DNA of 64,000 nucleotides from Candidatus Krumholzibacteriota bacterium (GCA_039714075.1 JBDLKA010000003.1:8789-72788); one strand, 5' to 3'; shown: positions 1 through 9,881, counted from the first letter of the stretch. Notes: a model not told the origin generated them from the sequence alone. Numbers and translations: made by a program.

Positions 1-513
1 ACCAAAACCCGGCAGGGAATGGAAATAGTGCGCACCCTGGAAAAAGCCGTAAAGAACCTGCAGCGATCCTCCGAGCAGCAGCAGTTTCATGGTCCACCGC
101 CAACGTTCCGTGCCGCGGGTCCACACGGCCGGCCAGAGGGCGAAAAATGCCATGATGGCCAATTGCACCAACTGCTTGCCGAACCGCCCCACCGTTTCGC
201 CGACCGGTTCGCCGACGGGAGCCGCCCACAAACCCGCCAGGGAAAGCAACACACTGAGCAGGACAGCTCCGGTTCCGAACATCCACCACCTGCGCAATGC
301 GGGCCGCAGGGAAACCGGGCAGCAGGATCGCCAGTCACCGCAACGCAGACGATCGACCGTGGCGCACAGGACAGCGGCGGCAAGCAACGCCCATGACGGC
401 TGCAGTCCGCCCCCCCAATCCCTGCCGGTAACAAGTTTCAGGACACCCGCACCGGACCAGGGCAGTGTCACCAGGGCAGCCCCGTAAAAAAAGGTGGCGC
501 AGCGGGCCGGCAT
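1..513 (-). CDS. Polytopic membrane protein, possibly O-antigen ligase/polymerase (Wzy_C-like); 3' end lies outside the window
   Basis: Not in the ORF track because it is open to the window edge. Manual translation from ATG at 513, which overlaps the TGA of the upstream gene: MPARCATFFYGAALVTLPWSGAG...GGGLQPSWALLAAAVLC...VLLSVLLSLAGLWA...KQLVQLAIMAFFALW...LLLLGGSLQVLYGFFQ. Several TM segments; the family call is an inference from the QxxYGxxQ-like segment. Confidence 0.6.
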   Translation of the reverse strand, partial: MPARCATFFYGAALVTLPWSGAGVLKLVTGRDWGGGLQPSWALLAAAVLCATVDRLRCGDWRSCCPVSLRPALRRWWMFGTGAVLLSVLLSLAGLWAAPVGEPVGETVGRFGKQLVQLAIMAFFALWPAVWTRGTERWRWTMKLLLLGGSLQVLYGFFQGAHYFHSLPGFG

Positions 514-1091
514 CACGAACCCCGCCTCTCGCCTGATTTCATGCGGGCACGCCGCAGCAGGACGATGATCAGGAGGGTCATGCCCGCCAAAAGGAGAAGT
601 CCCGACTTGGACGCCGGTAGCCCGCTCGCCGGGCGGCGATACCGGATCACGGCCCCGCGAACTTCCAGTTCACCGCCGGTCAACTGCAACTCCAGCAGGC
701 CGTCGGTCAAAACAACCGGTTCCGACACGGGAAAGATCCCATCCCGGATGACAAGACTGCCACTGGAACCCGATCCGGCCAAAAATTCGGTACAGGGAAT
801 CCCGAGGTCCCACCTGCCGAAATCCTCGGCTATGACAGGATCGAAAATGGTCAGGCGCCCTTCGTCCCAGATCAATGACCTGGTCCCGGGATCCGCACCG
901 GTATCCCACGCGAATCCGGCAGCCGAATCCCGGGCGGCTTCAATGACCAGATAACCTGGTTGCCCCAGATTGTGGGTTTGATCGGACTGGGCCGGGGAAA
1001 GACAGGGGGAACCGACCACCAGAAAAACCAATACACAACGGCGGACGGCGGCCCGGGACACGCGACCCCTCACCTGGCTGGAAGTCAACAT
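513..1091 (-). CDS. Hypothetical exported protein with N-terminal signal-like segment and C-terminal membrane anchor
   Basis: ATG at 1091 overlaps the stop of the upstream gene. Hydrophobic N-terminal stretch CVLVFLVVGSPCLSPAQS; C-terminal GLLLLAGMTLLIIVLL followed by a basic tail RRARMK. Confidence 0.65.
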   Translation of the reverse strand: MLTSSQVRGRVSRAAVRRCVLVFLVVGSPCLSPAQSDQTHNLGQPGYLVIEAARDSAAGFAWDTGADPGTRSLIWDEGRLTIFDPVIAEDFGRWDLGIPCTEFLAGSGSSGSLVIRDGIFPVSEPVVLTDGLLELQLTGGELEVRGAVIRYRRPASGLPASKSGLLLLAGMTLLIIVLLRRARMKSGERRGS

Positions 1092-1945
1092 TCGGCCAGA
1101 CCCGACATCATGGTCACGGCCAGGCGGCGCCACAGGGAATCGGGATCATCCGCCCGGGGAAAATTGGCGACCAGGTTGTCCTGTCCGGACACCGGACTTA
1201 TCCCCAGGGGGATCCCGGCGCAGACTCTTTCCACCAGGCCCGCAATGCGAGCCAGGTTTTCGGGATCGTCCCCGGGCGAGACCGCATTGCGGATTTCATC
1301 GAGCCATCCCGGCCGGCCGGCGGATGACCAGGCATCGGGGAACAAGAGGATTTCCATCCGGCCGGGTTCGATCACTTCGGCAAGACGGCCCAGGGAATAA
1401 TAGGTGCCCAACCGCTGAGCCTCCTTTTCCTGCAGACACCAGACGAGGCCGCCGGAAAGGCTCACCGCCGGCGGACCGGCCGAGGGCGCCGCCGACAAGG
1501 CCTCCAGGTGGGAAAGTTCCACCGGCCCCATGCACCCCAGGTGATTCCAGCGGATTTCCCCAACCGTCCCTGATTGGGGCGCTGCCGTTACGGCACCGGC
1601 AGATCGGGCAGGAGATTCAGTGGAAACGGTCCAGGTGTTCCGGTGTCTTGCCGGAGGATCGGCCTGGACCCGGGACATCCCCCCATTGGATCTGAAATAG
1701 GTTCCAACCGACCAGCGGACCTGGGGGTCTTCGCCGAGAGTGGCGGGTCCGGGAGAACCAAGAGCCAAACCGGCCGCCGCAAAGGCCGAGATGGCAGCGC
1801 CCCCCGGCGCGGCCACGGTGCAATGGAAATGATCCCGGCCGGATTTTCCGACAGCTTCAGGGCGACCTTCCTCAAGGAAAAGGTGGGCAATGGAGGAAAT
1901 GTGATGGGGCCGTCGGGGATCGGCCCCGGAATCGGTTCGCGCCAT
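1085..1945 (-). CDS. Hypothetical protein, possibly a degenerate MinD/FlhG-like (pseudo-ATPase) partner of the upstream ParA
   Basis: Likely start MARTDSG at 1945 within track ORF 1085..2188. N-terminal HHISSIAHLFL motif; TVAAPGGAAISAFAAAGLALG resembles an eroded deviant Walker A plus following helix. Confidence 0.6.
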   Translation of the reverse strand: MARTDSGADPRRPHHISSIAHLFLEEGRPEAVGKSGRDHFHCTVAAPGGAAISAFAAAGLALGSPGPATLGEDPQVRWSVGTYFRSNGGMSRVQADPPARHRNTWTVSTESPARSAGAVTAAPQSGTVGEIRWNHLGCMGPVELSHLEALSAAPSAGPPAVSLSGGLVWCLQEKEAQRLGTYYSLGRLAEVIEPGRMEILLFPDAWSSAGRPGWLDEIRNAVSPGDDPENLARIAGLVERVCAGIPLGISPVSGQDNLVANFPRADDPDSLWRRLAVTMMSGLAEC

Positions 1946-2033
1946 GGTGAAATATTCTCCAAGCAGTCCGCAGGCGGACTGTCCTTGCCGGCTTACGCCT
2001 GAATCAGGTTCCCGCCTCCGCGGCGAAAACTTC

Positions 2034-3107
2034 TCAGGTGACGACGACCAAACTGTTGGCACCGCCGAATTCATTGGCCACCGTCCGGCTGTTGTGGGGA
2101 TCCGGCAGCCAGCAGCCGTCGACGATGAATCGGTACTCGTGTTCCCCGCGCTCGAGATCGAGGTGACATTCCCACATGCCGTCCTCACGCTTGTTCAGGG
2201 GCAGACCCTTGGCGGACCAGTCACAGAAGGAACCCGTGATCCTTACGGTCCGGGCACTCGGGAAATCGGATTCGAACCGAACTCCGGCCTGGGATACGGC
2301 CGGCCCGTGCAGAAGGGCGGACCAGTGATCAAGGGCGACCACTTCCAGGGCGACTTCCTGGTCGAGCAGTTCCCGGGCCAGGTGCCGGAAGTCGAAGGCG
2401 GCCCGGCATTCCGGATCCAGTTTGGCGACCGAAACACCCAGGACGGCGGCTTCCTTGGTCTTCACGGTATGGTGAATGACCGAGTCCAGGAGTTCACTCT
2501 CGTAAAGCTCCTCCAACTCCGCCATGACCGAACGCACGAAGCGGGGCCGCGTATCGAAATCCGACATGAGGATACGCGGGACGACGTCATGCCCCTTCTT
2601 GTCCCGCAGGACCGCGAGGGTTTCGCGCATCTTGCGCACGGCCTGCAGTCCGTAACCGCTGGGATCCACGGGAATGATGACCTCGCCGCAGGCCAGCAGG
2701 GCATTGAAGGTCAGCAGGCTCACGCTGGGGGGACAATCGATCAGCACGTAATCGTAGGGCAGGGAACTGCGGCGCAGGTTGTTCCGCAGGCGCAATTCCT
2801 TTTCCGTTTCCCGGGCCAGGGTCATTTCCACGCCGCTGAGCTCCACACCGGCCGGCACCAGATGAAAGCCGGGACCGACTTCCAGAAAGGCGTCCTCGAC
2901 CAGGATGTCCGAGGTCAGATACAGATCGTAGGTGCTGAGGGTGAAATCGCGTTCGCGGAAGCCGCAGGCCAGGGTGGCGTGCCCCTGGGGATCGTTGTCG
3001 ATGAGCAGGACTTTTTTCTCGAGTTGGGCCAGAGTTGAGGCAAGGTTGGTGGCGGTGGTGGTTTTGCCGCATCCGCCTTTCTGGTTGGCCAGAGCAACGA
3101 CTCTCAT
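2034..3107 (-). CDS. ParA/Soj-family ATPase fused to a C-terminal CBM48/AMPK-beta-type glycogen-binding domain
   Basis: Deviant Walker A NQKGGCGKTT, LLIDNDPQG, Walker B YDYVLIDCPPS. C-terminal ~85 aa ARTVRITGSFCDW...GMWECHLDLERGEHEYRFIVDGCWLPDPHN...NEFGGANSLVVV is the CBM48/early-set signature. Confidence 0.9.
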   Translation of the reverse strand: MRVVALANQKGGCGKTTTATNLASTLAQLEKKVLLIDNDPQGHATLACGFRERDFTLSTYDLYLTSDILVEDAFLEVGPGFHLVPAGVELSGVEMTLARETEKELRLRNNLRRSSLPYDYVLIDCPPSVSLLTFNALLACGEVIIPVDPSGYGLQAVRKMRETLAVLRDKKGHDVVPRILMSDFDTRPRFVRSVMAELEELYESELLDSVIHHTVKTKEAAVLGVSVAKLDPECRAAFDFRHLARELLDQEVALEVVALDHWSALLHGPAVSQAGVRFESDFPSARTVRITGSFCDWSAKGLPLNKREDGMWECHLDLERGEHEYRFIVDGCWLPDPHNSRTVANEFGGANSLVVVT

Positions 3108-3229
3108 ATCGAATCCTTTCGATTATGAATCGTAGAGCGCAACCTCCCGGAAATGATCCGTCCGGGATATTGTGTTTTACCTCTATAGGGAAGGCCGGCG
3201 GGCCCTCCATTCCGCAGGCATCTGACCCC

Positions 3230-3257
3230 AGCATACGTCCCGGGAATGATCTGTCAA
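3230..3257 (-). promoter_or_regulatory. Sigma70-type promoter for the parA-CBM48 operon
   Basis: Minus strand reads TTGACA-16 nt-TATGCT, about 120 nt upstream of the ATG at 3107. Confidence 0.55.
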
Positions 3258-3321
3258 CATGTTTAACGGGAACAGTTTTCAGGGCGGTCCGGCAGGAGAC
3301 CGGAATGGAAACCCTCAGCGA

Positions 3322-3765
3322 CTAGGCGGCAGGCGGAATTCCCCACAACAGATAGAAGAGGACGCCGACCACCATTCCGCCGGCCACTTCGGCCCAGGTG
3401 TGGCCCACCAGTTCACGCAATCGGGAACCCGGAACCTTTTCACCGGCCAGGGCGCTGTCCATCAAATCGTTGAGAAGTTCGGCCTGCTTGCCTATTTCCT
3501 GGCGCAGGCCCGTGGCTTCGAAGATCACGAACAGGCCGAATACCAGAACCAGGCTGAACAGGGAGGAATCGAAACCCTCGGCGCGTCCGACGGCCAGGGT
3601 CAGGGTGGTCACCGTGGAGGTGTGGGAACTCGGCATGCCGCCATTGGCGAAAAACAGACCCGGGCGGAACCTCCGCTTCAGGACCAGCTCGATGACCACC
3701 TTGGCGGCCTGGGCGGTCAGGCCGCTGATCAAGGCGAGAATACCCAGGTTGATCACGGAGGCCAC
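3322..3765 (-). CDS. Divergent PAP2 family protein (DUF212/YuiD-like)
   Basis: Motifs AQAAK, GGMPSSHTS, GLRQEIGKQAELLN, LRELVGHTWAEVAGG. Confidence 0.9.
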   Translation of the reverse strand: MASVINLGILALISGLTAQAAKVVIELVLKRRFRPGLFFANGGMPSSHTSTVTTLTLAVGRAEGFDSSLFSLVLVFGLFVIFEATGLRQEIGKQAELLNDLMDSALAGEKVPGSRLRELVGHTWAEVAGGMVVGVLFYLLWGIPPAA

Positions 3766-4028
3766 CCCCCTTTCTCAATGGCCCGCCGGGAAGGGCCGCT
3801 GGAAATCCTGGACCATGACACCCTCCGGGGCGGTAAGGGGTGAAAACAAGGAGAATTCCTGTCTGAAGGCCCGCACAATAACAGAAAACAATTCCAAATC
3901 AACGTGCAACTTGAGAATTGCGCGATCTTCTACCATTTTAGGGCATTGTTCGGAGAAGCCGGGAACCTTCCGACCCATAAACGGGTCTGATGCCCAGCGA
4001 TCCTGCCACCCATCTAAGGAAGTCGAAA

Positions 4029-5840
4029 ATGTTCAAGTTTCTGCGTTCCCAGGCCAAGGTCTTCTACTGGGTGATTGCCGCCACCTTCATCCTTTTCCTG
4101 TTTCTCGGGGGGATGACCGGTCGGGGCTGTCAGGCCCCCGGGTCCAAAAAATATGAAGCCGGGGTGATCGGCACAGTGAACGGAGCCGAGATCACCGCCC
4201 AGCAGTTCGACTACACCGTAAGGCAACAGAGGGCCCAGATGAGGCAGCAGGCCCAGAACAGGGAACTCAACGCCAACCAGTTCGCCGCGGCCGACCAGCA
4301 GGCCTGGGATTCCCTGATCCAGGCCGCCATCTTCGCCGAGGCCATCGAGGAAATGGGCATCACCGTTTCCGACGAAGAGGTCCTTTCCGTCTTCGAAAAC
4401 AACCCCCCGCCCGAACTGCTGGCCCAGTACCGGGATCAGAGCGGAAACGTCGACATCAACCGCTACTACGCCGACCTGCAGAATCCCGAGGTCGACTGGT
4501 CCCAGCAGGAGGCCTACATCCGGGCCATGCTCCCCTGGCAGAAACTGACCGCTGCGGTTTCGGCCTCGGCCGCGGTCAGCGAGGAAGAGATCAGGGAAGA
4601 ATACATCCGCCAGACCGGCAAGGCCGTGGCGGAATACATCGGCATCCAGTTCGCGGAACTCGAAGGTGATTTCGAACCCACCGAAGAGGAAATCAACGAT
4701 TGGTACCAGGCCCATCCCGACGACTTCCAGGCTCCGGCCAAGGCCAGTTGCCAGGTGGTCAAATTCGCCAAGGAACCCAGCGAGGCCGACAGCCGGGAAG
4801 TCCATGATTTCATGATGGAGATCCGTGAGGAGATCCTCTCCGGGGCCAAGACGTTTGAAGCAGCCGCCGGCGAATACAGTGAAGATTCCGGCACTTCCAC
4901 CAACGGCGGGGATCTGGGCAACTTCGATCGCACCCGCATGGTGGCCAAGTTCACCGAAGCCGCCTTCGCTCTGCCCGTGGGAGAATTGAGCGAGCCCGTC
5001 CAGACCAAGTTCGGTTACCACCTGATCGAGGTCACCGGCCAGTCCATCGACGAGGATACGGGCGAGGTCTACGAAATATCCGCCCGGCACATCCTGATCA
5101 AGGTCTCTCCCGGGCCGGACACCCTGGATCTTCTGCGCGATGCCGCCGAGGACTTCCGCGGCCGTGTCGACGGTTCCAGTTTCGCCAGCACGGCCGAAGC
5201 CGAAGCCCATGACCTGATGACGCCCCCGGAATTCGTCAAAGGCCGGGACATTCCCGGGCTGGCCCTGTCGGCCGCCGGTGGCAACTGGGTCTTCGCCGCC
5301 GAACCCGGCCAGGTGAGCCGCCTGTACGAAAACCGGGAAAACATCTATGTCGTCCTGGCGGGGGAAATCACTCCCGCCGGCCTGGCACCCCTGACCGAGG
5401 TCAGCAGCCGTGTGTCCCTGGCCGTGAAGAAGGACCGCCAGCTTACCGCCGCGCGGGCCAAACTCAGCCCCGCGGTCGGCGAAATCCAGATGGGCCGGAC
5501 CCTGGCCGAAGTTGCCGAAGCCGGTGGATTCATCCACGCCGTCACGGACACCTTCACGGTCAACGGCAACGTCCAGGAGGTGGGTTACGGCACCGAATTC
5601 AACAAGGCGGCCATCAACGGCAGCGTGGGAACGCTCATTCCCGAGGTGGAGACCCTGCGGGGAGTCTATGCCCTGACCCCGTTGTGGATCGCACCTTTCG
5701 ACCAGGCCGATTTCGATGCGCGCAAGCCGGGCATCCAGGGCGCCCTGCTCTCGCAGGCCCAGAACGCGGCGGTCGAAGAGTGGTACACCGCCCGCCTGGA
5801 AGAAGCCGAAATCGTGGACCTGCGCTACTACCAGCCGTAG
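4029..5840 (+). CDS. ppiD: PpiD-like membrane-anchored periplasmic chaperone/parvulin PPIase
   Basis: N-terminal MFKFLRS plus TM anchor, SurA_N-like region (IGTVNGAEIT), rotamase motifs FEAAAGEYSED...GGDLGNF...MVAKFTEAAF...SEPVQTKFGYHLI. Confidence 0.85.
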   Translation: MFKFLRSQAKVFYWVIAATFILFLFLGGMTGRGCQAPGSKKYEAGVIGTVNGAEITAQQFDYTVRQQRAQMRQQAQNRELNANQFAAADQQAWDSLIQAAIFAEAIEEMGITVSDEEVLSVFENNPPPELLAQYRDQSGNVDINRYYADLQNPEVDWSQQEAYIRAMLPWQKLTAAVSASAAVSEEEIREEYIRQTGKAVAEYIGIQFAELEGDFEPTEEEINDWYQAHPDDFQAPAKASCQVVKFAKEPSEADSREVHDFMMEIREEILSGAKTFEAAAGEYSEDSGTSTNGGDLGNFDRTRMVAKFTEAAFALPVGELSEPVQTKFGYHLIEVTGQSIDEDTGEVYEISARHILIKVSPGPDTLDLLRDAAEDFRGRVDGSSFASTAEAEAHDLMTPPEFVKGRDIPGLALSAAGGNWVFAAEPGQVSRLYENRENIYVVLAGEITPAGLAPLTEVSSRVSLAVKKDRQLTAARAKLSPAVGEIQMGRTLAEVAEAGGFIHAVTDTFTVNGNVQEVGYGTEFNKAAINGSVGTLIPEVETLRGVYALTPLWIAPFDQADFDARKPGIQGALLSQAQNAAVEEWYTARLEEAEIVDLRYYQP

Positions 5841-5935: not shown

Positions 5936-6367
5936 TCAATCATCCCCAAAGGGGTTGTGGGGTTTCTTCTTCCGGAAATCCTCCAGGTCCTCCCCCATCC
6001 GGTCCATTTTCTTTTTCTGTTGCTCCTGGTGTTCACCGGAGTCGAAAAGCTTGGACATTCTTTCGGCCTCTTCGGACTTGCGGCGGTCGAATTCCTTCAA
6101 GTCCTCGGAAATCTCGGGTCCACCTTCTTCCGGCAATTCCTCCACCACCAGATGGTCCCTGATCTCCGCATGGGTTTCAAAGGCGCTTTTCACCAGGGCG
6201 ATGGCACCCTGATCCTCCAGAAAAGCCAACTGGAGCCGGACCGCGCTGGCTGACTGCTGCAGCAGTTCGGCCAATTCCTCGGGCGTGGGCGATCTCCCGT
6301 TCAGATGACTCAGGACCCTGACCCCGGCCAGCAGCAGCTGGGCCTCGTTCCTGGTAAGATTGATCAT
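5936..6367 (-). CDS. Hypothetical winged-helix DNA-binding protein with charged C-terminal tail
   Basis: RSPTPEELAELLQQSASAVRLQLAFLEDQGAI is an HTH/wHTH pattern; ATGA overlap with the upstream gene. Confidence 0.7.
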   Translation of the reverse strand: MINLTRNEAQLLLAGVRVLSHLNGRSPTPEELAELLQQSASAVRLQLAFLEDQGAIALVKSAFETHAEIRDHLVVEELPEEGGPEISEDLKEFDRRKSEEAERMSKLFDSGEHQEQQKKKMDRMGEDLEDFRKKKPHNPFGDD

Positions 6368-7596
6368 GATCCCATCTCCGCTTCCAGCCGGCAGGACGCT
6401 TCGGTGGCCCTGCGGTCCATCATCTTTCGCAACCGGTCCACCCGGTGAACCTCGCCCGATTTCCGGGCGTGGTCAAGAGCCTTCGGCAAATCGATCAAAC
6501 GGTGTTCATACAGGATGGCTGCTTCCCGGTGAAGCCAGGCGGTATCGACGCCTGCGGCCAGACCGGCGCGGATGATCTTCTCCACCAGACCCCAATCACC
6601 CCCCCGTTTCAGGATCCGCACCGCATCGGCCACGAAGCGCGGCTCACCCAGGCCCCGGGCTTTCCCTCGTAGGGCCGCAGCCACCGCGGTTTCCAGACAG
6701 GCAAGGGACAGCTGTGTGTCACGCCGCTTTTCACAGATCCTGCCCAACGCCCATCCGTCCCGCCAATCCAGGTCCGCCGACGGTTCCGTTCCGGGAGCCA
6801 CCAAACGCGCGGCCTCGACAACCCGCAGCAACAGGTGGGCCATACCCAGCATGTCCCGCTGGTTGTGGGTCATGACTTCGGGCAACTGCCCGGGTCGGCC
6901 GGAAGCCAGGAAATCGAACCAGGCCTGGGGGATGCGGGATCCCTCCAGATCACCGGCGCCCCGCGGCAGTCCGCAGACCTCCTTCTCGAGTGTCTGTTGC
7001 CGGCAATTCTCCAGGCGGTTGCCCCACAGCCGGCGGGCGGGGAACAGAAGGTCCCACCCCGTCAGGGAAACGAAGGGATCCTCCCGGCGGTTCAACCGCG
7101 CCCGGGTTCGCAACAGGGGCAGGTCATAGGACGCCCCGTTGAAAGTCGCCACCACCCTGAATCCGGCGGCCAAGTCGGCCAGTTCCTTCAGCAGGGCGGC
7201 CTCGTGCCCCGGGTCAGGCAGAAAATACTGGCGGGTTTCAAGCCCGTCCGCAGCCCACCAGGACACCCCCACGAGGAAAGGAATCGTCCCGGTGCCTCCC
7301 GCCAGCCCGGTGGTTTCGGTGTCCATGAAAAGGATCTCCCCGGGATCGGGGGCGGGAACCGCCTGGTTGGCAAAGAACTCCCGCAATTCGGGCAGGGGAA
7401 ACGTGGGCCGGGGCAGGACATCGAACCGGGACCGCATCCAAAAGGGACCGAGGGGGCCCGTTTGCTCCTCCAGCCCGAGGTGAGTGAGGGTTTCGGCCGG
7501 ATCCCCGGATACGGCCGCACCGAAACCGGTCGGGACCGCGGCGTCGGGACGGCGGGAAAGCCGGTCCAGTTGGGCCAGTCTCTTTTTCAGGTCCAT
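6364..7596 (-). CDS. YprB/MrfB-like DEDD exonuclease (RNase_H_2) with helical C-terminus
   Basis: FMDTETTGLAGGTGTIPFLVG, VATFNGASYDLPLL, DLLFPARRLW, HNQRDM; directly downstream of a DUF1998 helicase; start taken at MDLKKRL. Confidence 0.85.
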   Translation of the reverse strand: MDLKKRLAQLDRLSRRPDAAVPTGFGAAVSGDPAETLTHLGLEEQTGPLGPFWMRSRFDVLPRPTFPLPELREFFANQAVPAPDPGEILFMDTETTGLAGGTGTIPFLVGVSWWAADGLETRQYFLPDPGHEAALLKELADLAAGFRVVATFNGASYDLPLLRTRARLNRREDPFVSLTGWDLLFPARRLWGNRLENCRQQTLEKEVCGLPRGAGDLEGSRIPQAWFDFLASGRPGQLPEVMTHNQRDMLGMAHLLLRVVEAARLVAPGTEPSADLDWRDGWALGRICEKRRDTQLSLACLETAVAAALRGKARGLGEPRFVADAVRILKRGGDWGLVEKIIRAGLAAGVDTAWLHREAAILYEHRLIDLPKALDHARKSGEVHRVDRLRKMMDRRATEASCRLEAEMGS

Positions 7597-7598
7597 GG

Positions 7599-9881
7599 TC
7601 AAGCCTCGCCGGCGGCCTGCCCGGTCTGTCCCAGCAGCCAACGGGCGCCTTCGCGGGCCGTGGTGCCGGATTCCACGGCGGGACCGACGCAGGATGGGCA
7701 GCCCTTCTGGCAGGGACACTGCGACAGGTGTTTCCGCGCGGCCAGGCAGATGTCCTCGAACTGCTCGAAGATCCGGCGGGCGTAGCCGACGCCCCCGGGA
7801 AAGGCATCGTACAGATAAAGGGTGGGTTTCCCCGTGAAGGGCGACCTGACCATGGCGGTGGCGTGAAGATCCGCGGAATCGGCCATGATGAACAGCGGCG
7901 CCACCCGCCCCAGCAGATGGGCCACGCCCTTGAGGGCGTCACCCAGGTCCAGCCCCTCGGCCGACATGGCGGCCCCCAGATCCTGCGGCAATTCCCACCA
8001 GAAACTGGTGGTGTGCATTTCCATCTCCGGCAGATGCACTCTTCCCGCGCCCACGTTTTCATGGGTCCCCAGTTTGATCTTCTTGAAAACCGTGACTTTG
8101 GAAACCAGCCCCACGTCGCCCAGGGCCAGACTCCCGTAGAAGAAATCACGTTCCGACTCGGCGGTCAGGGTCTTCAGCTCACTCTTGCGCTGGGCGTCGG
8201 TATAGTAGTCCACCGACACCGGCTGCACGTGGGCCTCCCGGCGGTCCCAGTCCAGTTTGTCCACATGGTACTGCTGGGCCCCGTGCATATAGACAGCATC
8301 GTCGTGGAGCATTTCCTGTGCGGAGAACAGGTCCATCTCGCCGATGACACGGCCGCCGGCGAGGGCCTGGTCGATGATGACGACGTTATCGGGAGCGGCG
8401 CTGCGCAGACTGACGTCTTCGGCCGGATAGGTGTCGCTCACCCAGTGGTAACGGTCGCCGCTGTGGTGGAGAACCTTCATGTCGGCCAGGTAATCGAGGA
8501 TCTCGACCACCCGGCGCCCGCCGAAGTTTTCCTCCGCGCCGAAGGGCAGTTCGAAGGCGGCGCACTTGAGGTGGCTCATGAGGATGACCAGGTTGTCCGG
8601 ATCCAGGGAAGCGTGTTCCGGGCTGCGGCCGAAGAAGTAGTCCGGATTGTTGATGATGTACTGGTCGCCGGGGCTGCTGGACGCCACGAGAACGACGGCG
8701 CTCAGGTTCTGGCGCCGGCCCGCCCGTCCGGCCTGCTGCCAGGTGCTGGCGATGGTGCCCGCGTACCCGGCCATGACACACACGTCCAGCCGGCCGATAT
8801 CGATACCCAGTTCGAGGGCGTTGGTCGACACCACCGTGGTGACGCTTCCATCGCGCAAGCCCTTTTCGATCGCCCGGCGTTCCTGCGGCAGATACCCGCC
8901 CCGGTAGCCCCGCACCTCTCCGCTCTTGATGCCCACCCGGCGGCCCGCCTTTTCCAGATAGGTCAGCAACAGCTCCACCCGCATGCGGCTGCGCGCAAAA
9001 ATGATGAGTTGGGAGCCGCTGGACATGAAGCGCTCGGCGATGGCGCGGGTGGTCTTGATGACCGATTGCCGGATGCCGAGTTCCCGGTTCACCACCGGTG
9101 GGTTGTAGAAGATGAAATGCTTCAGGCCCCGGGGCGCTCCGTTGCGGGCGATGGATTCCATCTCGAGCCCGGTCAGACCGGAGGCCAACTGCCCCGGGTT
9201 GGCGATGGTGGCGGAACAGCAGATGAACTGCGGATCGCTGCCGTAGAATTCGGCCACCCGTCGCAACCTGCGGATGACGTTGCCCACGTGGCTGCCGAAC
9301 ACCCCGCGGTAGTTGTGCACCTCGTCCACCACCACGTATTTCAGGTTCTCGAAAAGCTTCACCCACAGGGTGTGATGCGGCAGGATCCCCTGGTGGAGCA
9401 TGTCCGGATTCGTCACCACGATGTGGCCGCTGCTGCGGATGGCGCGCCGCGCGGTTTCCGGAGTGTCGCCGTCGAAGGTGAAGGTCTTGATGTCCTCGCC
9501 CAGGTCGGTGACGATCCCGTGGACCTCGTGCATCTGGTCCTGGCTGAGGGCCTTGGTGGGGAACAGGTACAGGGCGCGGGCGCGGCGGTCCCGCAGGATC
9601 GCGTCCAGGACGGGCAGGTTGTAACAGAGGGTCTTTCCGCTGGCCGTGGGCGTGGGCACCACGAACGAATGTCCCTGGCGGGCCAGTTCTACGGCCTCGG
9701 CCTGGTGGCTGTAAAGACGATCGACGCCCCGGTTCTTCAGGACGTCGATCAGGCGTGGTTCCAGGCTGTCCGGATAATCCGCGTACCGCCCGGCTTCAGG
9801 GGGGATCACTTCCCAACGGTTGACGTTGCGCAGGAATCGATCGTCGGCCTTCAGCCGGTCAAGAAGCTGGGCAAGATTCAA
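7599..9881 (-). CDS. DEAH-box helicase with DUF1998 C-terminal Cys cluster (YprA/MrfA/Hrq1 family)
   Basis: TPTASGKTLCY, LYLFPTKALSQDQ, TNPDMLH, DEVH, YRGVFGSH, STNALELGIDIG, QQAGRAGR, C-terminal LYDAFPGGVG...CPCQKGCPSC. Confidence 0.93.
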   Translation of the reverse strand: MNLAQLLDRLKADDRFLRNVNRWEVIPPEAGRYADYPDSLEPRLIDVLKNRGVDRLYSHQAEAVELARQGHSFVVPTPTASGKTLCYNLPVLDAILRDRRARALYLFPTKALSQDQMHEVHGIVTDLGEDIKTFTFDGDTPETARRAIRSSGHIVVTNPDMLHQGILPHHTLWVKLFENLKYVVVDEVHNYRGVFGSHVGNVIRRLRRVAEFYGSDPQFICCSATIANPGQLASGLTGLEMESIARNGAPRGLKHFIFYNPPVVNRELGIRQSVIKTTRAIAERFMSSGSQLIIFARSRMRVELLLTYLEKAGRRVGIKSGEVRGYRGGYLPQERRAIEKGLRDGSVTTVVSTNALELGIDIGRLDVCVMAGYAGTIASTWQQAGRAGRRQNLSAVVLVASSSPGDQYIINNPDYFFGRSPEHASLDPDNLVILMSHLKCAAFELPFGAEENFGGRRVVEILDYLADMKVLHHSGDRYHWVSDTYPAEDVSLRSAAPDNVVIIDQALAGGRVIGEMDLFSAQEMLHDDAVYMHGAQQYHVDKLDWDRREAHVQPVSVDYYTDAQRKSELKTLTAESERDFFYGSLALGDVGLVSKVTVFKKIKLGTHENVGAGRVHLPEMEMHTTSFWWELPQDLGAAMSAEGLDLGDALKGVAHLLGRVAPLFIMADSADLHATAMVRSPFTGKPTLYLYDAFPGGVGYARRIFEQFEDICLAARKHLSQCPCQKGCPSCVGPAVESGTTAREGARWLLGQTGQAAGEA

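Follow-up and report, generated by a model that had tools for sequence, protein, structure and literature searches.

Introduction

ATPases of the ParA type are known to serve chromosomes, plasmids, carboxysomes, chemoreceptor arrays and division sites, whereas no mechanism is known to us by which bacteria position their glycogen and pass it on. Here we describe a two-gene module in a 64,000-nucleotide (nt) stretch of a Candidatus Krumholzibacteriota genome (GCA_039714075.1, JBDLKA010000003.1:8789-72788; hereafter the window). Its first gene encodes a ParA/Soj-like ATPase joined in frame to a C-terminal carbohydrate-binding module (CBM) of family CBM48 (hereafter the fusion), and its second, co-oriented gene encodes a partner with a short N-terminal peptide that recurs in other phyla on otherwise different proteins.

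The closest sequences to the fusion are the ParA/Soj proteins of ParABS systems (8ray; Soj of Thermus, 1wcv/2bek; Soj of H. pylori, 6iub), with which it shares the deviant Walker A motif, the signature lysine, the switch aspartates and basic residues at the NVRL position. Unlike ParABS, the fusion has no adjacent parB or parS, carries a cysteine in its Walker A motif, ends in a CBM48 domain and has another kind of partner. The McdA-McdB, PomXYZ, ParC-ParP and MinDE systems resemble it in combining an orphan ATPase with a fast-evolving adjacent partner that bears a basic N-terminal helix, according to the accessible part of PMC12139897. In those systems the partner binds the cargo, whereas in the fusion the predicted cargo module is on the ATPase itself; moreover, unlike partners of the McdB type, the partner found here is probably a degenerate MinD-like protein, and is membrane-anchored in several lineages. 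Homology to McdB or PomX/Y was not observed, though no search was aimed at it. Another comparison is offered by BcsQ, a ParA/MinD ATPase tied to a polysaccharide machine, as Wzy and glycosyltransferase (GT) genes lie downstream of the fusion. However, BcsQ has no CBM, the fusion scores 80.5 bits with the BcsQ model TIGR03371 (cut-off 157.85), and no bcs genes were seen at the fusion locus. The CBM itself is like that of AMPK beta (4y0g, 2f15, 1z0m), with the glycogen-site tryptophans and lysine/arginine conserved; in AMPK it sits on a kinase scaffold as a sensor or docking module, whereas in the fusion it follows the ParA domain on a flexible linker.

A literature search for ParA-CBM48 fusions retrieved only one source, a bioRxiv preprint of 22 October 2026 (10.64898/2026.10.19.760177), whose accessible passages describe, from comparative genomics only, a 'ParA-CBM' system with the same ParA and C-terminal AMPK1_CBM. 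One variant in these passages includes a second, fast-evolving inactive ParA plus an inactive restriction endonuclease (REase), and its inactive-ParA part matches the partner of the fusion; another, with an upstream protein carrying a single transmembrane segment, resembles the Omnitrophota-type loci described below. The ParA-CBM architecture and the dead-ParA partner are therefore already described in the preprint. An earlier note on this DNA had stated that no characterised example was known, which still holds as regards characterisation, although the architecture is now in print. The same passages report ParA-CBM as sporadic in several phyla and argue for a role in immunity from rapid CBM divergence, whereas in the phylum studied here CBM and ATPase are equally conserved, and the gene is near-universal and occupies a syntenic position. 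These passages mention neither a conserved N-terminal peptide of the partner nor links to GT5 or glycoside hydrolase family 57 (GH57) genes, and the peptide is the key new point of this work.

Results

The fusion joins an orphan, Soj-like ParA to a CBM48 domain

The features of the module and its surroundings are collected in Table 1. Profile hidden Markov model searches confirmed what had been read earlier from the sequence, an intact ParA in frame with CBM48, with NQKGGCGKTT, DNDPQGH and IDCPPS present in the translation. The Pfam matches were AAA_31 at residues 1-170 (E 2.6e-45; 155 bits, cut-off 27), CbiA (E 6.1e-18; 65.4 bits, cut-off 25.4), AMPK1_CBM at residues 285-356 (E 4.2e-13; 49.7 bits, cut-off 26.8) and CBM_48 at residues 271-333 (E 1.1e-6; 29.3 bits, cut-off 22.4). 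None of the NCBIfam equivalog cut-offs was reached, the score for ParA_partition being 123.6 bits (cut-off 180). An AlphaFold2 model built with 44 homologues (mean predicted local distance difference test, pLDDT, 90.6) consists of a ParA domain, a long C-terminal helix at residues 235-265 and a beta-sandwich at 270-357. All of the 120 best database relatives (65-100% identity, mostly of exactly 357 amino acids, aa) contained PF16561 together with ParA families, and 125 of the best 150 cluster representatives at 50% identity had one ParA domain and one C-terminal CBM, the others including 11 with ParA only and 13 multi-CBM proteins with 3-18 repeats. The architecture is neither a product of chance nor an assembly artefact.

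Table 1. Coordinates of the fusion, its partner and neighbouring features in the window
Feature	Positions	Strand	Basis or remark
Fusion gene, whole	2034..3107	-	357-aa open reading frame (ORF)
ParA/MinD ATPase domain, residues 1-250	2358..3107	-	Pfam AAA_31; pLDDT >90 in AlphaFold2 model
Linker, residues 251-267	2307..2357	-	End of long C-terminal helix, then flexible stretch
AMPK-beta-type CBM48 domain, residues 268-357	2037..2306	-	Pfam AMPK1_CBM, CBM_48; stop codon 2034-2036
Partner gene, 286 aa: N-terminal peptide and P-loop-less MinD/ParA-like (SIMIBI) body	1085..1945	-	AlphaFold2 model, VIA-align
Partner N-terminal peptide, residues 10-26, PRRPHHISSIAHLFLEE, candidate ATPase-contact helix	1868..1918	-	Conservation
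Promoter-like site TTGACA-16 nt-TATGCT	3230..3257	-	About 120 nt upstream of fusion ATG; 10/12 matches
DUF212 (divergent PAP2) gene, upstream neighbour	3322..3765	-	Pfam E 1e-37
next206, third gene: signal-peptide-like N-terminus, C-terminal membrane anchor	513..1133	-	Hydrophobic segments 28-46, 175-193
Wzy_C (O-antigen-ligase-like) gene start	1..516	-	Pfam Wzy_C 3.3e-12; start overlaps next206 stop by 4 nt

In the ATPase domain, the deviant Walker A motif reads NQKGGCGKTT, the switch residues are D37/D39-P-Q and the Walker B aspartate is D124. Residues N8, K10, G11, G12, G14, K15, D37, D39, P40, Q41 and D124 are invariant in an alignment of 44 fusion proteins with identities down to 30%, and the cysteine of KGGCGKT is present in at least 90% of them. 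The nearest solved structures to residues 2-250 are ParA/Soj proteins (8ray, E 5.4e-42; 1wcv, 2e-35; 6iub, 2.7e-32). At the place of the Soj NVRL motif, whose arginine we take to be DNA-binding, lysine or arginine occurs at position 216 in 32/44 and at position 218 in 42/44 sequences. As judged from these residues, the ATPase domain is intact and Soj-like, and the fusion would be expected to dimerise in an ATP-dependent manner and to bind DNA.

The assembly that contains the window (4.06 Mb, 260 contigs, 92% complete) has nine AAA_31 matches, of which a canonical 257-aa parA on contig C14 scores highest. The only ParB_N match in the assembly (C14:29100-29426) adjoins this parA, so that no parB is adjacent to the fusion, in agreement with the earlier note. 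Since the parAB pair is located elsewhere, the fusion represents an extra, orphan ParA, and a role as the main chromosomal ParA was rejected.

The CBM48 domain retains the glycogen-binding residues of AMPK beta

For the C-terminal 98 residues, the best matches among solved structures were the CBMs of AMPK beta-2 and beta-1 (E 6.3e-11 to 9e-9), with the AMPK beta-2 CBM 4y0g at the top (E 6.3e-11) and 2f15 and 1z0m also matched, followed by a pullulanase, SEX4 and GlgB. The alignment with 4y0g pairs SFCDW with SFNNW, YRF with YKF, GCW with GQW and FGGANS with LGTINN, and thereby places W, R(K), W, F(L) and N in register. In the AMPK beta-1 CBM, the W100G and K126Q substitutions abolish glycogen binding and mutations of W133 weaken it, as given in the accessible part of PMC6274970. 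The counterparts of these three residues are kept almost throughout the 44 fusion sequences (W297 in 44/44, lysine or arginine at 326 in 43/44, W333 in 42/44), and position 351 is asparagine in 34/44. By these residues the binding site is intact and the CBM looks competent for alpha-glucan binding, which would then be the activity of this domain in the fusion.

A domain of the AMPK-beta type might also act as a sensor. In such a scheme, glucan binding would tune the ParA switch and thus report glycogen or energy reserves, with regulation of division, of the nucleoid or of a membrane complex as output. AMPK provides the precedent, as its CBM lets glycogen inhibit the kinase (PMC6274970, accessible part), and the partners described below are often membrane proteins or carry helix-turn-helix (HTH) or RodZ_C domains, rather than being obvious granule proteins; in addition, the fusion is dispensable in 20 GT5-positive genomes. 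The AlphaFold2 model, however, predicts no contact between the CBM and the ATPase domain, the linker is of low confidence (pLDDT <50 at residues 256-266) and ranges from about 10 to about 370 aa among relatives, and no output domain or target is evident. Because the linker is flexible and variable and no CBM-ATPase contact is predicted, a tether fits better than an allosteric module, and we regard the sensor as rather unlikely.

Further proteins with CBMs of this type were observed. The genome of the window encodes a 1013-aa GH13 alpha-amylase with three AMPK1_CBM-type modules and a signal-peptide-like N-terminus (G000:C112:2843-5884; locus L178 144..3185, minus strand), and an 825-aa secreted protein with two such modules, a signal-peptide-like N-terminus and no catalytic domain found (G000:C22:40270-42747; locus L179 71..2548, plus strand). 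Moreover, five proteins lacking a ParA domain (P0121, P0124, P0146, P0172 and P0231) are large and consist of 6-18 tandem CBM repeats that closely resemble the CBM of the fusion, and might serve as glucan scaffolds.

A short N-terminal peptide is shared by otherwise different partners

Inside the phylum, the partner protein begins with a peptide of consensus RxHHIxxIAHxFL, which in the window reads PRRPHHISSIAHLFLEE. A profile made from distant fusion proteins was used to collect loci across the whole of GTDB, and in other phyla the peptide takes the forms LGRGLxxVSHLFLS, PRDLGDVLHYFLPE or RNLRDISHLYLS. Individual versions are KLGRGLAEVSHIFLSG in Eisenbacteria; LGRGLEDVSHLFLS in Rokubacteria, Gemmatimonadales and Thermodesulfobacteriota; KRGLEEISHLFLSS in metagenome-assembled genomes (MAGs) labelled Deltaproteobacteria; PRDLGDVLHYFLPE in Myxococcota; RSIGDIGHLFLSS and PARNMADIARLFLDG in Phycisphaerae; and SSIERFSHLFLS in Margulisbacteria. 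In Omnitrophota-type loci, MDKKDIYEHLAKIYLD followed by poly-lysine is found on a 190-aa single-pass membrane protein encoded directly upstream of the fusion; this cluster comprises 11 loci, with the N-terminus visible in 10. Using a regular expression for the motif, a same-strand gene beside the fusion was matched in 62/102 loci, against 69/1658 other ORFs, a count that includes a few obvious false positives among the 62 and overlooks several genuine cases. The LGRGL forms resemble the N-terminus of the genome's own ParB, NRVLGKGLSALIQG (VLGKGLSALI).

The bodies behind the peptide differ among loci, and include MinD-like and P-loop-less proteins, an AAA_22 protein (L137), a protein with HTH_17, a membrane helix and RodZ_C (L131), and single-pass membrane proteins; a family search on 27 partners found none for 21 of them. 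[quoted passage not shown] A short peptide that stays constant while its carrier varies is what is expected of an ATPase-contact motif, and we infer that the partner peptide contacts the ATPase domain of the fusion.

One single-contig genome (G079:C1) holds two fusion copies, near 0.96 Mb and 1.79 Mb (L076 and L077). Both partners there bear the peptide RHIRDIAHLYIS, and one of them has 646 aa instead of about 263.

The partner in the phylum is probably a degenerate MinD/ParA-like protein

The co-oriented gene that the earlier note had seen behind the fusion is present, and its product had no Pfam, NCBIfam or PADLOC match. We consider it to encode 286 aa, rather than the 367 aa of the maximal ORF, because the likely start, the ATG at 1945, is preceded by a GGAGAA ribosome-binding site 9 nt upstream; this ATG lies 88 nt past the stop codon of the fusion. 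When partners were counted as ORFs of at least 150 aa starting from -10 to +200 nt of the fusion stop codon, a co-oriented ORF followed the fusion in 44 of 50 loci of the phylum, with starts 2-90 nt beyond it, and two of the six loci lacking one (L060, L061) end too soon to hold it. The partner evolves fast, with identities of 25-50% where those of the fusion are 72-87%, and it was not detected by tblastn in distant families of the phylum.

An AlphaFold2 model of the partner built with 41 homologues (pLDDT 83.7; predicted template modelling score, pTM, 0.82) has a separate N-terminal helix at residues 17-23 and an alpha/beta body from residue 39. When compared by VIA-align with 48,161 chains, it matched SIMIBI proteins with Z of 9-11 over 175-203 aligned residues, including 3kb1 (Mrp/MinD-type), Cfd1, ApbC, HypB, NifH, TP228 ParA and CooC, and further Get3, MinD, ParA 8ray, FlhG, FleN and MipZ. 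Small GTPases reached similar Z, over just 146-171 aligned residues. Foldseek of the model against the Protein Data Bank (PDB) gave no match at E <= 0.001, only weak matches to P-loop NTPases. PfkB-type matches of the partner in the protein Atlas share just 101-118 features, the Atlas model is poor (pTM 0.18), and we give these matches no weight. At the place of Walker A the partner reads VAAPGGAAISAFAAAGLA, without a lysine. The missing Walker A lysine and the SIMIBI-like fold of the model together indicate a degenerate, probably nucleotide-free, MinD/ParA-like protein. The partners of three loci from other phyla (L105, L112 and L114) pass the CbiA, ParA or AAA_31 cut-offs, and that of L105 retains a GKGVRGKT loop. 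By its position and peptide, the downstream gene is an activator-like candidate for the ParA partner.

The fusion is a conserved, syntenic gene of the phylum

We sampled 151 genomes of the phylum and counted as carriers those with a fusion match at E <= 1e-60; almost every such match spanned residues 1-356. By this measure the gene is present in 111 genomes, from all 9 families and 58/69 genera (38-100% identity), at one syntenic site between DUF212 and the partner; it behaves, on these grounds, like a housekeeping gene. The source names of the closest relatives are Candidatus Krumholzibacteria. Beyond the phylum, a pattern scan of 185,579 species genomes gave at least 599 fusion relatives, from at least 12 other phylum-level groups. 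The best 80 of these loci are all from MAGs and have the CBM in the same ORF in 73 cases. The labels among these 80 include Myxococcota, Planctomycetota (several orders), Omnitrophota, Desulfobacterota/Thermodesulfobacteriota, Eisenbacteria, Zixibacteria, Nitrospirae, Spirochaetaceae, Gemmatimonadales, Margulisbacteria, Rokubacteria and Thiogranum, among others. The ESM Atlas gave the same spread.

These data bear on the interpretation advanced in the preprint (bioRxiv 10.64898/2026.10.19.760177), according to whose accessible passages ParA-CBM is an immune (conflict) system: the CBM would detect depletion of polysaccharide or a carbohydrate signal of infection, upon which ParA multimers would form and block the invader, while the inactive second ParA and, sometimes, an inactive nuclease would be accessory sensors. 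The preprint describes the same architecture, including the variant with a second, fast-evolving inactive ParA, and the partner in the phylum, with its low identities and its lost Walker A lysine, has the corresponding traits; such a fast-evolving partner is, nevertheless, compatible with both an immune and a positioning role. The CBM, on the other hand, does not diverge rapidly in the phylum: across 51 loci it is on average 63.4% identical to that of the window, the ParA domain averaging 63.2%, and distant families conserve it better than they do the ATPase. Nor is the gene sporadic, as seen from its count and its single site, and its neighbours are housekeeping or envelope genes and not defence genes. 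With PADLOC, the fusion had two weak matches confined to the P-loop (E 5.3e-5 and 0.0078; about 35-45 residues), and no match was obtained for the partner, the third gene next206 or the proteins of two relatives; furthermore, several loci tie the fusion to alpha-glucan synthesis genes. The conservation of the CBM, the synteny, the neighbours and the PADLOC results thus argue against an immune function, at least in Krumholzibacteriota, where we hold it to be very unlikely, and the proposed sensory roles of the inactive ParA and nuclease equally so.

The fusion is frequently, but not universally, linked to alpha-glucan metabolism

The genome of the window encodes glgA (495.7 bits, cut-off 328), glgC (468.6 bits, cut-off 424.9), a GH13 branching-like gene (248 bits, below the cut-off) and a phosphorylase. 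With the strict glgA model (TIGR02095 at E <= 1e-60), 92 of the 151 genomes have both the fusion and glgA, 19 the fusion only, 20 glgA only and 20 neither, families f5 and f8 standing out as having the fusion without glgA. The GT5 domain PF08323 at E <= 1e-5, a more sensitive measure, gives 99 with both, 12 with the fusion only, 20 with GT5 only and 20 with neither. The earlier note had suggested examining co-occurrence with glgA, glgB and glgC; co-occurrence with glycogen synthesis is common, GT5 being present in 99/111 carriers, although not strict. We had considered the gap in the strict count a strong argument against glycogen, but this was softened by PF08323 and by two loci (in G029 and G079) that reveal divergent GT5-like genes.

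In five glgA-negative carriers that were examined, no glgC or GlgB exceeded the cut-offs. Two of them (G011 and G027) have phosphorylase, GH57 and GH77 genes, and G011 also GH13, whereas the same profile searches detected no phosphorylase, GH57, GH77 or GH13 in G079, G022 and G035. Physical links were found at several loci. In G029 (family f8), a 125-aa CBM-only gene begins a series 680 nt after the fusion that continues with two GT4/GT5-like glycosyltransferases (PF08323 at 58 and 78 bits) and a GH57 gene with a branching-enzyme C-terminal domain (BE_C). Copy 2 of the fusion in G079 is followed by the partner, a small gene, a 111-aa CBM-only gene and a GT-like gene broken by a run of Ns. Seven Omnitrophota-type loci have a GH57 gene at 620-950 nt upstream of the fusion. 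The link between the fusion and alpha-glucan metabolism is therefore frequent, in places physical, and not universal.

In the window's lineage the module is followed by surface-polysaccharide genes

The DUF212 gene is found upstream of the fusion in 30/30 loci of family f1 and in 21 loci of a wider set; it is conserved context with no known functional link. The promoter-like site between them is the only match in window positions 1-4000, and is weak evidence since shuffled sequences yield 0.7 +/- 0.9 such sites. No terminator-like site was found between the fusion and the next gene. The third gene, next206, follows the partner in 20/30 f1 loci by tblastn, and has no Pfam, NCBIfam or PADLOC match. 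In one locus (L072:3050-4267; G100:C43) the partner and a next206-like membrane-anchored tail form a single 406-aa ORF, which suggests that the two proteins may work together at the membrane.

In the window's lineage, the fusion, the partner, next206, Wzy_C (491 aa), a GT4 (394 aa), a WecA-like gene (440 aa) and a methyltransferase-like gene form a same-strand string; the GT4 and WecA-like genes, downstream of the window (locus L176, G000:C3:1-9304), match Glycos_transf_1 (3.1e-29) and Glycos_transf_4 (1.7e-33). This arrangement raises a role like that of BcsQ, with the ATPase and its partly membrane-anchored partner placing or assembling a Wzy/GT apparatus while the CBM holds a glucan intermediate. 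The continuous strand from the fusion to the WecA-like gene, with 4-nt overlaps at both junctions checked (next206/Wzy_C and Wzy_C/GT4), speaks in its favour, as do a Wzy-like gene after the module in 8 loci of the phylum, an Alginate_exp-like porin gene near the fusion in Omnitrophota-type loci, the membrane-anchored partners and a Pfam CBP_BcsQ match on the fusion (E 2.3e-13). That score, however, is what any ParA gives, and the Wzy/GT context is limited to a part of the phylum and absent from the Myxococcota, Planctomycetota and Desulfobacterota loci examined. CBM48 modules, in addition, are known as binders of alpha-glucans and are not known to bind O-antigen-like polymers. We consider a BcsQ-like organiser highly improbable.

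Several other genes were noted around the module. One fusion-negative locus (L180, G070:C7:1133412-1136819) contains DUF212, a 183-aa partner-like ORF with a degraded N-terminus and a next206 homologue, and has the appearance of the syntenic site after deletion of just the fusion gene. In families f3, f4, f5 and f8, a conserved 110-136-aa protein without a family match in Pfam or PADLOC is encoded after the partner (L075, L077-L079, L085-L087, L169, L172-L175), and may be the 'inactive REase' of the preprint's accessible passages; in 8 loci it is followed by a lipoprotein of about 610 aa with PKD and metallopeptidase matches. A 957-aa Peptidase_C25 protein is encoded at the start of contig C3 (locus L176). 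Elsewhere in the window are a PpiD-like periplasmic chaperone with SurA_N and rotamase domains (3990-5840, plus strand), a 143-aa protein with weak HTH matches below the cut-offs (5936-6367, minus strand), and an RNase_H_2-superfamily protein (6364-7719, minus strand; Pfam E 8.4e-28) that overlaps the end of a 760-aa helicase-like ORF with a C-terminal cysteine cluster (7599-9881, minus strand). These last two we take to resemble the MrfA/MrfB DNA-repair pair.

Discussion

We favour, tentatively and as little short of an even call, a two-gene module of the ParA/MinD type that tethers or distributes glycogen-like alpha-glucan, with the partner as an activator acting through its N-terminal peptide. 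In the mechanism that we propose, the ATP-bound 357-aa protein would form the usual sandwich dimer and sit on a matrix, most likely the nucleoid, while its two CBM48 modules, on flexible linkers, would bind alpha-glucan chains at the surface of a glycogen particle. The basic, amphipathic N-terminal peptide of the partner would then dock on the dimer and trigger ATP hydrolysis and release. Repeated binding and release would tether the glycogen, and either distribute it across the nucleoid or hold it away from the membrane or the poles, where several of the partners are anchored, such that both daughter cells would inherit reserves.

The earlier note had proposed a positioning ATPase that grips glucan directly. 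Its orphan ParA, the hallmarks of a ParA partner, the kept CBM residues and the loci with alpha-glucan genes speak for this proposal, whereas two carriers in which no alpha-glucan family was detected do not fit it. These carriers belong to a set of points, the preprint's account of the same architecture among them, that weigh against glycogen tethering. Descent of the partner from ParA is weakly supported within the phylum: hhalign of the partner with the fusion gave a probability of 8.7%, and 1/41 partner members had a CbiA match, itself weak (E 0.0011). The operon in the window's lineage runs into Wzy_C, GT4 and WecA-like surface-polysaccharide genes, and not into glycogen genes. No GT5 match was found in 12/111 carriers; two carriers, G022 (96% complete) and G035 (95% complete), both fragmented MAGs, showed 0/8 alpha-glucan families, and still keep the five CBM residues and the partner peptide. 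Another 20 genomes have GT5 but lack the fusion, so glycogen does not require the module. Finally, the cargo-binding domain would be on the ATPase and not on the partner, an arrangement that, to our knowledge, no characterised ParA system shares.

The module is a directly testable candidate, consisting of two small genes, a predicted ligand that can be purchased and a peptide of 15 residues, and the competing immune interpretation in the accessible passages of the recent preprint (bioRxiv 10.64898/2026.10.19.760177) makes the question a live one. It is possible, though we put this forward with some doubt, that the module represents the first dedicated bacterial machinery for active tethering and partitioning of glycogen particles, in which a ParA with a fused CBM48 would work with a ParB-derived peptide carried by varied, often membrane-anchored partners, including a dead MinD-like paralogue. 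If true, the fusion would be the first ParA to carry its cargo-binding domain on the ATPase itself.

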